Shown here piece by piece: positions 31,689 to 39,600 of a DNA stretch of 64,000 nucleotides. The notes below the pieces were generated by a model. That model saw only the letters and a list, made by a program, of their open reading frames with translations. It was not told where the DNA came from and did no database searches. Position 1 is the first letter of the stretch. Every line of letters starts with the position of its first letter. The stretch is from Eledone cirrhosa. Taxonomy: Eukaryota. Both the position numbers and the translations under genes were made by a program. Location of the stretch: the NCBI GenBank assembly GCA_964016885.1, contig CAXHJY010000315.1, positions 10,221 through 74,220 of the forward strand, read 5' to 3'.

Positions 31689-32001
31689 CCATAAAGAAAG
31701 AGAGAGATAGGGTTAACCATACAGAATGGTCACGTGATCACTGTTAGCACAGCGGGCAATACCATAGATTTCATTATAAATCCCTCTACAATCATTTACG
31801 AAACCTCAAAGACAAGTATCTTGTTGATCCATTCTTTAACAACTCCCGAGAGAGCTTTGCCATTCCATCCTTTATAGTTATCTATTAATATAAATAGTTG
31901 TTCTCCTCAAAGAAGAACTCCGGTTAGGAAACATAAAAGACGCGGAAAAATGGTACATCATAAAGATTCGTATAATTTTACGAATATACATACACACACA
32001 C

Positions 32002-32033
<32 letters not shown>

Positions 32034-32124
32034 ATGTGTGTGTGTGTGTGTGTATGTATGTGTGTTCGTGTGTTTGTGCCTGTGTGTCTGTGTGTGTATT
32101 TATGCATTATCTATATATATATTC

Positions 32125-32206
<82 letters not shown>

Positions 32207-32250
32207 AAAGAATAGAGAGCAAACAGCACGGACACTCTATCTCAAAATTA

Positions 32251-32288
32251 TTTTTGAGAAGCATTTAGAAATGCGCAACCGGTAAAAA
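32251..32288 (+). ncRNA. Decayed hammerhead-like motif with U3-A8 core
   Basis: TTT-TTGAGAA-GCATTT-ag-AAATGC-GCAA-CCGG-TA-AAA, with A13>C. A matching half motif GCGAAA-CCGG-TA lies on the minus strand at 58907-58918. Confidence 0.4.
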
Positions 32289-32406
32289 CTTAAAAACTTA
32301 AAACCACAACTGAATACTAACCCATACAATCACTAATACTCTTGTATTCCTAATTAAACCATTTTTTCAACTGTGAACAATTTGTCAGCATTTTCTATTC
32401 CGTTTA

Positions 32407-32476
<70 letters not shown>

Positions 32477-32674
32477 ATAAATGAAAGGTATAGAAAACAT
32501 TGTAGCAAAAGTCAACAGTATTCCATAATATATAAGTGACTATGTCGTCAAAATGGGAAAAATAGTTAACGTAAGATGTGGGGAAAATAATTCAAACTCA
32601 TCTCAAAGAGAATCAGGATTCTTATATTATATATATATATATATATACATTATATATATATTATATATATATAT

Positions 32675-32858
32675 AACGAAGGAATTGTGGTAAGGAACCA
32701 GATGGACCATAACGCACCAGAGTACTCAATACTTAGGGTAGTAGAGTGGGTAATAGGAAAAAGTATGACCCCGAAGGCAGAGCTCAAGCCGTTTCGACGG
32801 CTATTTCTAGAAATAGCCGTCGAAACGGCTTGAGCTCTGCCGTCGGGTTATACTTTTC

Positions 32859-32861
<3 letters not shown>
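32675..32861 (-). mobile_element. Fold-back family A copy
   Basis: Tail plus a palindrome centred on GGCTATTTCT|AGAAATAGCC. Confidence 0.9.
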
Positions 32862-32901
<40 letters not shown>

Positions 32902-32911
32902 ATATATAAAG

Positions 32912-33093
32912 AGATAGATATATTTCTTTATTAGCCACAGGGGCACAAAAGAAGGGGACAAATACAAAGGGGGAAGTTTACATACAATAAAAACGTGTAA
33001 AATGTTATCACAAATGGAATTTAAAAAAGTTAGTCGATTTTCCCCAATAGAGGGAGACAGTTTATATGGGTAACACATACCCCCGAAAAAAAA
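32912..33093 (-). mobile_element. L1/Tx1-like LINE 3' UTR, second copy
   Basis: Near-identical to 16618-16797. Confidence 0.6.
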
Positions 33094-33102
33094 TATATAA
33101 AG

Positions 33103-33145
<43 letters not shown>

Positions 33146-33493
33146 ACTTGGTAGTAGGCTAGTATTTGCTGTGTTTCAATAAATCTTATTTCGTACCATT
33201 TCACACAATTTCGACACACAGAGCAAAAATTTGAACTTCGTGCGTCCCTACGCAAATAAGTATAATAATATTTGATTACTAGAAATAGTATTTGAGAAAG
33301 TCGGGTAAAATACCTCTGACTTGGCAGGGATTAATTAGTAATTAATTAGCCATGTGAGAACGCTAGATACTACTGTTTCAGAGTATTGAGATAAGAATAA
33401 GCAATAGCTTATATGCCTTCCTACAAATATCTATTAGGAATCATGCTATGTTAGTGCTACTACTAATTGGTCCCATATATATATATATATACA

Positions 33494-33608
33494 CCAGTAT
33501 TCTGATGATTTGATCAAGCAAAGACTGTAATTAAGGTCGAGTGACGTAATTTCTAACGATAAGCGACTTTTAGACTCACCTGATTAATGAAACAATTGTT
33601 AATACTGG
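33494..33608 (+). ncRNA. Type I hammerhead ribozyme with ~80-nt stem II region (family I; element extends to ~33659)
   Basis: Perfect 8-bp stem I CCAGTATT/AATACTGG; CTGATGA at 33502-33508; stem II base TTGATCA/TGATTAA; GAAAC-AATT-GTT at 33589-33600. Confidence 0.85.
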
Positions 33609-33804
33609 AAATAAACCATTTGTGTACAGCCGACCATGTTATTCTTCACTCTTTTACTATATATAGAGAGAGACTAATAGTTATGGAAAAGGTTTGTACA
33701 TTTTAATTCAATTTTTATCATGTATTTTTCGTTTGTTTCATAGATTATATTCTTCATATCAAAGTGGTTTTACAGCCCTCGTTGTTTAAACACATTTTTC
33801 TGTG

Positions 33805-33848
<44 letters not shown>

Positions 33849-33871
33849 ATATATTATATATATATATATAT

Positions 33872-33926
<55 letters not shown>

Positions 33927-34057
33927 AGGGAACAAAGAATGAGTGTTGCATCATATACATATTTAATTACATATTACATATGTTTCACTGTTGATCAGCT
34001 CGAGGAACGATCGATTAATGATCGATGCTGACTCTCGAAACGGAAGCTCCTCAGCTC

Positions 34058-34098
<41 letters not shown>

Positions 34099-34136
34099 GA
34101 AACACACAGATACATGCGGACACACACATATATACA

Positions 34137-34739
34137 TGAATGCATCCGCACCCAACTGCGAGTTAAGGGTGCCAACTTCACCGATGTTGCTCAATGAATG
34201 ACTGGGACAGACCAATTCAGTTTGAACCAGACTGAACCAGTATCAGAGTTAAAAATACATTATGAAGAGGGAAGAAACATTTAGATATAATTGGTAATAA
34301 AATGTATCATACCTAAACTGCTCCTAAATTCCTCGACTACGTAGTTTCGTGGCATAAACAAAAACAATATATCAAAGATATAGAGTCCTTGCGAGGTCTG
34401 CCAACTTATCAAGAGGATACCTCATTTTACTAGTCTCAAGAACGCTCCGTGGTATTTTCTTCGTGGTTATAAGAGGCTTAGCTCTGTTTCTCGACCGTTA
34501 TATCGCGTGACTATCTCCCCCTCCGCCTTTTGGGATTCTTTCTCACGTCGTGTAGACGCGTTCTTGAGACTAGTAAAATGAGGTATCCTCTTGATAAGTT
34601 GGCAGACCTCGCAAGGACTCTATATCTTTGATATATTGTTTTTGTTTATGCCACGAAACTACGTAGTCGAGGAATTTAGGAGCAGTTTAGGTATGATACA
34701 TTTTATTACCAATTATATCTAAATGTTTCTTCTCTCTTC

Positions 34740-34744
<5 letters not shown>
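34137..34744 (-). mobile_element. Fold-back family F: 187-bp arms, 112-bp spacer, ~120-bp tail
   Basis: Arms 34259-34445 and 34558-34744 with one visible mismatch; ends in (TA)n. Confidence 0.92.
34586..34673 (+). ncRNA. Type I hammerhead ribozyme, U3-A8 variant (mirror copy on the minus strand at 34330-34417)
   Basis: Stem I TCCTC/GAGGA; TTGATAA at 34591-34597; stem II G-t-TGGCA/TGCCA-C with a long insert; GAAAC-TACGTA-GTC at 34655-34668. Confidence 0.78.
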
Positions 34745-34782
<38 letters not shown>

Positions 34783-34809
34783 GCTGGCCTTGTGCCGAAA
34801 TCAGAAACT

Positions 34810-34844
<35 letters not shown>

Positions 34845-34925
34845 TGTCTGTGTGTGCGTGTGTCCACGTGACCGCACATGATGTCTGTAAACATTCAAAT
34901 GTTTATTATTATCTCCAGTAAGGAA

Positions 34926-35515
34926 GGGCGGCGGGTTGGCAGTATCGGTAGAGGGTCGGACACCATGCTTTGCAGCATAGAGTTACGGCCCTTCATGATC
35001 AGAGTTCAAATTCTTTCATCCTTACGGGGTCCATAAAATAAAGTACCAGTGACGCACTGGGGTCGATTTAATCGACTTTCCCCTCCCTCAAAATTGCTGA
35101 CCTTGTGCCTATATAAGAAACCATTATTTTGGACGCCATTTTTTCCCAGCATAGAGTTATGTTCCTTTACGGTCTGAGCTCAAATCCCACCGAGGTTAAC
35201 TTTGCCTTTCATACTTACGGGGTCGATAAAATAAAGTACCAGTCACGCACTGGGGTCGATTTAATTGACTTTCCCCTCCCTCAAAATTGCTGACCTTGTG
35301 CCTATATATGAAACCATTATTTTGGACGCCATTTTTCCCAGCATAGAGTTATGTCCCTTTACGGTCTGAGCTCAAATCCCACCGAGGTTAACTTTGCCTT
35401 TCATACTTACGGGGTCGATAAAATAAAGTACCAGTCACGCACTTGGGGTTGATTTAATCGACTTTCCCTTCCCCCTGAAATTGCTGGCCTTGTTCCTATA
35501 TAAGAAACCATTATC
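34926..35515 (+). mobile_element. SINE followed by two tandem 5'-truncated units (~190 bp)
   Basis: Junction GAAACCATTATTTTGGACGCCATTTTT at ~35117 and ~35310; three cores. Confidence 0.9.
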
Positions 35516-36502: not shown

Positions 36503-36620
36503 TCATATTTGCAAATCCTAAAAAAATACGTCATAACTTTATTTATTTTTATGACATTATTAATAACACTTGACTGAAGAACATGACTTAAAAGAATTAA
36601 TTCTGTGATTCGACTTCTTT

Positions 36621-39600
36621 CTTTGAAAGTCCTTAAACACAACAAAAACACCGCCAGAATTACGCCCACATACATACAAACGAATATATACACACATACA
36701 CATCTTTGAAAGTCCTTATACACAATAAAAACACCGCCAGAATTATCCCACATACATACAAACGAATGTATACACACATACACATCTTTGAAAGTCCTTA
36801 TACACAACAAAAACACCGCCAGAATTATCCCACATACATACAAACGAATGTATACACACATACACAACTTTGAAAGTCCTTATACACTAAAAAAACACTG
36901 CCAGAATTATCCCACATACATACAAACGAATGTATACACACATACACACTTTGAAAGGGCTTAAACACAACAAAAACACCGCCAGATTTATCCCACATAC
37001 ATACAAACGAATGTATACACACATACACATTTTTGAAAGTCCTTATACACAAAAAAAAAACACCGCCAGAATTATCCCACATACATACAAACGAATGTAT
37101 ACACACATACACATCTTTGAAAGTCCTTATACACAACAAAAACACCGCCAGAATTATCCCACATACATACAAACGAATGTATACACACATACACATCTTT
37201 GAAAGGGCTTATACACAACAAAATCACCGCCAGAATTACCCCACATACATACAAACGAATGTATACACACATACACATCTTTGAAAGTCCTTATACACAA
37301 CAAAAACACCGCCAGAATTACCCCCACATACATACAAACGAATGTATACACACATACACATCTTTGAAAGTCCTTATACACAACAAAAACACCGCCAGAA
37401 TTATCCCACATACATACAAACGAATGTATACACACATACACATCTTTGAAAGTCCTTATACGCAACAAAAACACCGCCAGAATTATCCCACATACATACA
37501 AACGAATGTATACACACATACACATCTTTGAAAGTCCTTATACGCAACAAAAACACCGCCAGAATTATCCCACATACATACAAACGAATGTATACACACA
37601 TACACATCTTTGAAAGTCCTTAAACACAACAAAAACACCGCCAGATTTATCCCACATACATACAAACGAATGTATACACACATACACATCTTTGAAAGTC
37701 CTTATACACAACAAAAACACCGCCAGAATTACCCCACATACATACAAACGAATGTATACACACATACACATCTTTGAAAGTGCTTATACACAACAAAAAC
37801 ACCGCCAGAATTATCCCACATACATACAAACGAATGTATACACACATACACATCTTTGAAAGTCCTTATACACAACAAAAACACCGCCAGAATTACCCCA
37901 CATACATACAAACGAATGTATACACACATACACATCTTTGAAAGTCCTTATACACAACAAAAACACCGCCAGAATTACGCCCACATACATACAAACGAAT
38001 GTATACACACATACACATCTTTGAAAGTCCTTATACACAACAAAAACACCGCCAGAATTACGCCCACATACATACAAACGAATGTATACACACATACACA
38101 TCTTTGAAAGTCCTTATACACAACAAAAACACCGCCAGTATTACGCCCACATACATACAAACGAATGTATACACACATACACATCTTTGAAAGTCCTTAT
38201 ACACAACAAAAACACCGCCAGAATTACGCCCACATACATACAAACGAATGTATACACACATACACATCTTTGAAAGTCCTTATACACAAAAAAAAAACAC
38301 CGCCAGAATTATCCCACATACATACAAACGAATGTATACACACATACACATCTTTGAAAGTCCTTATACACAACAAAAACACCGCCAGAATTACCCCCAC
38401 ATACATACAAACGAATGTATACACACATACACATCTTTGAAAGTCCTTATACACAACAAAAACACCGCCAGAATTATCCCACATACATACAAGCGAATGT
38501 ATACACACATACACATCTTTGAAAGTCCTTATACACAACAAAAACACCGCCAGAATTACGCCCACATACATACAAACGAATGTATACACACATACACATC
38601 TTTGAAAGTCCTTATACACAACAAAAACACCGCCAGAATTATCCCACATACATACAAGCGAATGTATACACACATACACATCTTTGAAAGTCCTTATACA
38701 CAACAAAAACACCGCCAGAATTACGCCCACATACATACAAACGAATGTATACACACATACACATCTTTGAAAGTCCTTATACACAACAAAAACACCGCCA
38801 GAATTATCCCACATACATACAAACGAATGTATACACACATACACATCTTTGAAAGTCTTTATACACAACAAAAACACCGCCAGAATTATCCCACAAACAT
38901 ACAAACGAATGTATACACACATACACATCTTTGAAAGTCCTTATACACAACAAAAACACCGCCAGAATTATCCCACATACATACAAACGAATGTATATAC
39001 ACATACACATCTTTGAAAGTCCTTATACACAACAAAAACACCGCCAGAATTATCCCACATACATACAAACGAATGTATACACACATACACATCTTTGAAA
39101 GTACTTATACACAACAAAAACACCGCCAGAATTACGCCCACATACATACAAACGAATGTATACACACATACACATCTTTGAAAGTCCTTATACACAACAA
39201 AAACACCGCCAGAATTATCCCACAAACATACAAACGAATGTATACACACATACACATCTTTGAAAGTCCTTATACACAACAAAAACACCGCCAGAATTAT
39301 CCCACATACATACAAACGAATGTATACACACATACACATCTTTGAAAGTCCTTATACACAACAAAAACACCGCCAGAATTATCCCACATACATACAAACG
39401 AATGTATACACACATACACATCTTTGAAAGTCCTTATACACAACAAAAACACCGCCAGAATTATCCCACATACATACAAACGAATATATACACACATACA
39501 CATCTTTGAAAGTCCTTATACACAACAAAAACACCGCCAGAATTATCCCACATACATACAAACGAATGTATACACACATACACATCTTTGAAAGTCCTTA

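Follow-up and report, generated by a model that had tools for sequence, protein, structure and literature searches.

A 591-nt non-coding repeat with a U3-A8 hammerhead in Eledone cirrhosa, found as two-armed insertions with two fixed 3' ends and probably copied by a Penelope-like enzyme

How does a hammerhead motif come to stand on both strands of a near-perfect inverted repeat, and is its altered core a variant in its own right or the product of decay? In the 64,000-nt stretch of Eledone cirrhosa DNA analyzed here (the window), the original prediction placed at 34259–34744 a 187-bp inverted repeat carrying on each strand a hammerhead in which both partners of the C3-G8 pair are changed to U-A.

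Anatomy of the insertion and its motif

The arms at 34259–34445 and 34558–34744 are reverse complements over 187 bp with a single mismatch (34270/34733), their complementarity stretches to 191 bp with two mismatches, and both motifs were located within them, in agreement with the prediction. Mapping onto a 591-nt repeat unit revealed, however, that the predicted extent was too short: the element runs from 34090 to 34748, and the 187-bp repeat is merely the stretch common to both of its arms. The features are:

34090–34748: entire insertion, 591-nt retrozyme family; two 5'-truncated arms head to head, within (AT)n
34090–34445, minus strand: long (tailed) arm, unit positions 1–356, 99.7% identical to the unit; its 3' end, 34090, abuts (AT)n
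34445–34748, plus strand: short (untailed) arm, unit positions 479–591 then 1–191; its 3' end, 34748, abuts (AT)n
34090–34254, minus strand: 165-nt tail, unit positions 192–356, between the two fixed 3' ends; on one arm only, with predicted hairpins
34445: head-to-head junction of the arms, overlap 1 nt
34446–34557, plus strand: loop of the inverted repeat, 112 nt, unit positions 480–591, short arm only
34586–34673, plus strand: type I hammerhead; stem I 34586–34590/34669–34673, U3-A8 core 34591–34597, helix II with its extension 34598–34654, GAAA 34655–34658, palindromic helix III ACUACGUAGU, predicted cut after 34668
34330–34417, minus strand: identical hammerhead in the opposite arm; core at 34412, predicted cut after 34335

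Both arms of this copy are shorter than one unit, and the copy is therefore most likely a dead end. Its inverted repeat records one insertion event, in the course of which the same RNA was likely copied onto both cut strands of DNA, beginning at two fixed points.

Each arm reads TCCTC-TTGATAA-(57 nt)-GAAACTACGTAGTC-GAGGA. The core TTGATAA, at 34591 on the plus strand and 34412 on the minus strand, corresponds to U3 U4 G5 A6 U7 A8 A9, with positions 3 and 8 both swapped to U-A as had been claimed. Stem I (TCCTC/GAGGA, 5 bp), GAAAC, the ACGT loop and GUC are likewise intact in both arms, the 3' side reading GAAAC-T-ACGT-A-GTC, with a self-complementary 10-mer as helix III and cleavage at the GUC site predicted after C34668 (plus) and C34335 (minus). 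The layout was thus described correctly, but the 57-nt helix II arm that separates A9 from G12 had been overlooked; this helix, closed by G10.1-C11.1, has 6 bp, one bulge and a long hairpin extension. The motif contains the bases that a type I core requires (U4 G5 A6 N7, A9, G12 A13 A14, A15.1-U16.1 and an NUH site, here GUC), U3-A8 provides the Watson-Crick pair needed at 3-8, and the three-helix layout with an open stem I folds at -20.2 kcal/mol when constrained, as compared with -23.1 kcal/mol for the free fold. A search pattern for this layout gave two matches in the window and none in 200 shuffles, and what was observed at 34259–34744 is a genuine hammerhead layout. Rfam hammerhead models matched neither this motif nor a second one at 32254, at the gathering score or at E ≤ 10, and over 32000–35000 Rfam returned at E ≤ 10 just weak hairpin and miRNA matches; the long helix II insert and the minimal helix III are a likely cause. 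A motif does lie on each strand, but because both stem from one insertion and one template, they do not count as independent evidence.

An abundant non-coding family with a fixed core

A DNA search of the 3.0-Gb genome found 100%-identical copies spaced 591 nt apart. The 24-nt 3' half of the hammerhead has 7,444 exact matches genome-wide, and hammerhead copies of the family number about 7,000. Units are arranged in tandem with a period of 591 and one type I hammerhead each, in arms that reach 2,907 nt, or 4.9 units. The unit, whose longest stop-free frame has 86 codons, is non-coding; its predicted fold is more stable than those of shuffles (z -5.4), and its GC content is 42%, below the 50% that, together with the lack of coding capacity, characterizes non-LTR retrozymes. 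These tandem non-coding units with type I hammerheads (PMC7229834) have been proposed as non-autonomous partners of Penelope-like elements (bioRxiv 2026.07.22.740005), and the 591-nt family shares with their metazoan members the tandem non-coding organization, one type I hammerhead per unit, the GC content, the thousands of copies and the proposed partner. It differs from them in its non-canonical core and in its short, dispersed, two-armed insertions with fixed ends; its length exceeds the 150–450 bp given in PMC7229834 but falls within the 51–972 bp of the later preprint. No ORF with RT plus GIY-YIG is present in the unit, and the family was therefore not filed as an autonomous Penelope-like element. 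No exact match of the family was found in viral contigs, and our literature search, with supplementary lists as a possible home of such a family outside its scope, yielded no description of it. The 591-nt repeat is a new family with an already known core variant, and the locus is one copy of a very abundant non-coding mobile repeat whose U3-A8 hammerhead is likely self-cutting.

With positions 3 and 8 left free, U3-A8 was present in all 759 matches of the window's subfamily, which answers the question of fixation that the prediction had raised. Family-wide, the same search gave 7,095 matches; among the 100 listed, 99 are U3-A8 and one is U3-G8, and none of the 7,095 has both bases changed or is a C3-G8 member. 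An older subfamily (123 matches, 25% diverged), picked without using the 21 columns of the hammerhead 5' half, has kept U3-A8. Between old and young units 132 of 533 background columns differ, as against one of the 21 in the 5' half, namely the bulge (P=0.02), and stem I has gone from 7 bp in the old to 5 bp in the young subfamily. Retention of the 5' half across 25% divergence points to selection on the motif. The possibility that the motif is a C3-G8 hammerhead in decay, or has arisen by chance within a palindromic repeat or an assembly fold-back, draws on the missing Rfam match; it is contradicted by the lack of C3-G8 among the 7,095 matches, by the retained core, by the shuffles, by the unequal, non-nested arms of the window copy and by contigs of run X1, which may be the source sample, where both ends recur and are again followed by (AT)n. 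We consider decay from CUGAUGA, or chance, scarcely credible.

The reading of U3-A8 as a tolerated compensatory swap holds in so far as natural hammerheads with this covariation have been reported and earlier in vitro activity cited (PMC3088659), but there is no covariation at 3-8 inside the family; it is seen between families only. When all retrieved loci (815 kb, with overlaps) were scanned with both positions free, U3-A8 occurred in three further motif types and C3-G8 in five, and a single copy was mismatched. Nor is the variant a surprise, since natural U3-A8 cores were published in 2011 and, in Penelope-like elements, in 2014: about 1,300 U3-A8 minimal hammerheads occur in those of Schistosoma, in opposite-strand pairs 100–700 bp apart, with dimer action through a palindromic helix III and low in vitro activity (PMC4209133). 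With Cercyon of S. mansoni (PMC4209133) the 591-nt family shares the core, a short stem I (4–5 bp), G10.1-C11.1, a short palindromic helix III suited to dimers and the spacing of opposite-strand pairs, whereas its helix II has a 44-nt hairpin extension and its copies, of high uniformity, are part of a non-coding tandem unit instead of adjoining an ORF. A short-helix-II version of the motif was searched for, and one deletion dimer only was found; in this tandem dimer (L171/L172) the helix II extension of each unit lacks the same ~21 nt.

The second motif, at 32254, had been noted as U3-A8-like. It does read TTGAGAA, with U3-A8, and is hammerhead-like, but it belongs to a different family and has A13 changed to C. 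In full it reads TTGAGAA-GCATTTAGAAATGC-GCAAC-CGGT-A, inside a 200-bp two-armed fragment, with helix II GCAT/ATGC, loop CCGG and GCAA where the core needs GAAA. This family has 6,325 matches, with C at position 13 in 98 of the 100 among the matches listed, and has spread in this form; fixation alone is thus no proof of cleavage. The motif is part of the terminal repeat (window 32203–32410) of an element with a 784-aa RT/GIY-YIG frame (L185–L192), in which a cysteine motif precedes the nuclease, as described for the Neptune and Nematis clades (PMC8557442). The window also contains direct repeats of ~190 bp at 35026–35400, belonging to another dispersed repeat, and an 82-bp tandem array at 36538–37987.

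Two fixed 3' ends and one template per insertion

We mapped 86 loci, comprising all 51 behind the first 100 of the 7,444 3'-half matches and 35 others, some chosen as two-armed, with matches under 85% identity dropped. The 3' ends sit at unit position 191 or 356, 165 nt apart, and 126 of 129 on-site 3' ends continue into (AT)n, within whose flanks a target-site duplication is unreadable. There were 50 head-to-head pairs, 44 with both ends on site, four with one end rearranged or interrupted and two cut by the edge of the locus. Every one of the 44 scorable pairs (21 at the 51 unbiased loci and 23 at the other 35; 43 independent pairs, as L054 and L057 are duplicates) combines one short and one long end, while single arms divide into 20 short, 15 long and three off site. 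The arms overlap at their junctions mostly by 0–7 nt, the lengths of short and long arms are uncorrelated (rho 0.11), and the old subfamily uses the same two 3' ends. A published count of this pairing rule was not found in our literature search.

These insertions resemble those of EN+ Penelope-like elements (PMC3846280, PMC8557442, PMC11167929) in the head-to-head, inverted, 5'-truncated arm, the (TA)n or AT-rich microsatellite target and the two internal RT starts. A tail on one end only has been described for such elements (PMC3846280, PMC8557442), and for the anole element in vitro the tail lies between two internal RT starts, both target strands being cut and extended (PMC11167929). In contrast to them, the 591-nt family has no ORF, its tail is 165 nt and not the published 30–40 bp, the one-tail pattern is here a count, and both arms trace to one sequence variant. 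If the second arm were made not from a second target-primed start but through fold-back or self-priming, with the first cDNA or an antisense RNA as template, this would agree with a published model (PMC3846280) and with near-perfect fold-back junctions at L003, L085 and L095. In 17 of the 44 pairs, however, including the window's, neither arm is contained in the other, and these pairs therefore cannot have arisen by simple fold-back on the first cDNA, although an antisense template is still compatible with non-nesting; further, both 3' ends lie at fixed sites, one of each type, in all 44. On balance, we judge this origin improbable.

The RT/GIY-YIG elements of the genome likewise have (AT)n as their target and a tail on one end only, and U3-A8 motifs are present in the repeats of some of them. 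In the 32254 family the ends are 40 nt apart, and short and long ends are paired in six of seven inverted loci; in the remaining one a long end is combined with a short end of deviating size. A coding family with a 938-aa frame (L151, L152, L156, L160, L162) has ends about 129 nt apart and, in its repeats, a complete U3-A8 minimal hammerhead (UUGAAAA, GCAG/CUGC, GAAACCGGUA). A further fold-back insertion with arms of unequal length, again set in (AT)n, lies at 32675–32860 of the window and, elsewhere, at L168 2810–2950; it likely represents a third tailed family. In the search for a partner, no terminal sequence shared with the 591-nt unit was present in 50 (30 + 20) GIY-YIG loci out of 10,597 candidates, nor in 12 loci of the 32254 family; one locus (L146) has a copy of the 591-nt family as its neighbor, and a single 18-nt match had E 0.33. 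Likewise, no ORF was found between three spaced old-subfamily copies on C2.

Units diverge by 0.30% within an arm, by 0.31% between the arms of an insertion and by 2.6% between loci. In 31 of 36 insertions the opposite arms are identical at shared polymorphic sites, where 2.9 would be expected from other loci. Of the locus-private alleles, 15 occur throughout both arms (up to 8/8 units) and 8, at sites covered by one arm only, throughout that arm; 101 are confined to a single unit and 5 to part of the units, four of these 5 coming from one locus that holds two separate insertions. Based on these distributions, we infer that a single RNA variant serves as template for both nicked strands of the target, which prime at one site each, and a circular monomer best explains arms that are uniform over several units, although conversion after insertion may also be their source.

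The same element and enzyme could instead use as template an uncut linear multimer from a homogeneous tandem array, the hammerhead being slow or a protein-binding fold. Arm 5' ends show no accumulation at the hammerhead cut site (2 seen, 1.1 expected) and gather at unit 445–530 (41 against 19 expected, in an interval picked post hoc), which may mark the start of a linear transcript; the anole element was supplied in vitro with unprocessed RNA as its substrate (PMC11167929); and the C13 family has spread without a full core. On the other hand, a linear array with unit-specific changes is expected to leave private alleles on matching units of the two arms, and these are almost never seen: the alleles lie on all units (23) or on one (101), and on part of the units in just 5. 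Arrays would, moreover, shrink with each round unless some step re-multiplies the monomer. We regard a linear template as rather unlikely.

The stretch at unit 445–560 (window 34445–34530), enriched for arm 5' ends, has two CCCCCTCCGCC boxes and, outside the ribozyme, is better conserved than any other part of the unit (13% against 25% divergence); it is possibly a promoter or an RT stall. Two contigs of one unit plus 30 nt, 621 nt (X4) and 620 nt (X6) long with a depth of about 8, were set aside, as trace tandem-copy DNA would look alike.

Predicted activity, mechanism and meaning

In isolation the motif folds no better than shuffles (z -1.1), and the hammerhead fold is predicted to cost about 3 kcal/mol, with intermolecular pairing of helix III predicted at -12.9 kcal/mol. 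In a 1.7-unit RNA, modeled as a single full-length molecule on its own, stem I has almost no predicted pairing (near 0), and the core's 3' half is predicted to pair downstream, a sequestration that would suit an uncut template. Read-through RNA of the window locus is predicted to form a long duplex of the two arms that buries both motifs. The predicted partner of the 3' core half is a stretch that ends at the short priming site (unit 98–195, window 34655–34748), and in this folding model the pairing might act as a switch between cutting and priming folds. Eight of nine Xenopus retrozyme dimers showed no cleavage in vitro (bioRxiv 2026.07.22.740005), and for the anole element the ribozyme needed protein, while ribozyme mutants left insertion in vitro unaffected (PMC11167929). 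We lean slightly towards the view that dimers of the 591-nt family cleave under some physiological condition.

Cumulatively, the genome holds a family with a fixed core, two fixed ends, one-of-each pairing and a haplotype shared between arms, and the locus is probably a truncated two-armed insertion of the 591-nt U3-A8 repeat, copied, as seems likely, by a Penelope-like RT-endonuclease. In the mechanism that we propose, tandem copies would be transcribed, and two hammerheads would likely pair through their palindromic helix III, cut and free a monomer, which would likely be circularized. A Penelope-like enzyme would likely nick both strands of the (AT)n target, with one DNA end priming at unit position 191 and the other at 356; both ends would copy the same RNA variant over a variable length, up to 4.9 units, and the two products would be joined head to head. 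We put forward, tentatively and with somewhat less than even confidence, the more specific proposal that two RTs of one Penelope-like complex circle one circular retrozyme RNA, the (AT)n strands priming at non-equivalent sites 165 nt apart, always one each.

In LINE-1 twin priming, too, both target strands prime on one RNA, with an internal inversion as the outcome. The 591-nt family shares this feature with LINE-1, but its starts are internal and fixed, there is no poly(A), and its arms overlap and span several units instead of abutting.

The U3-A8 swap being already known, the interest of these findings rests mainly on the insertion statistics. Build-up of the inverted repeats and tails of Penelope elements is named as an unresolved step in PMC8557442 and PMC11167929, and the value of the locus lies in its family: the insertions number in the thousands, are young, short and nearly identical, and preserve a record of how these structures are made by Penelope-like elements. 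Strict pairing of short and long ends, a single haplotype and non-nested arms narrow the models, and the 591-nt unit offers a small substrate for in vitro work. The hammerhead families of this genome, with C3-G8, with U3-A8 and with U3-A8 plus C13, form a natural series bearing on the need for cleavage. If the proposal of two RTs on one circular RNA is true, the family would be the first genome-scale record of dual-primed rolling-circle retrotransposition and would explain the inverted-repeat-plus-tail structure of Penelope insertions.
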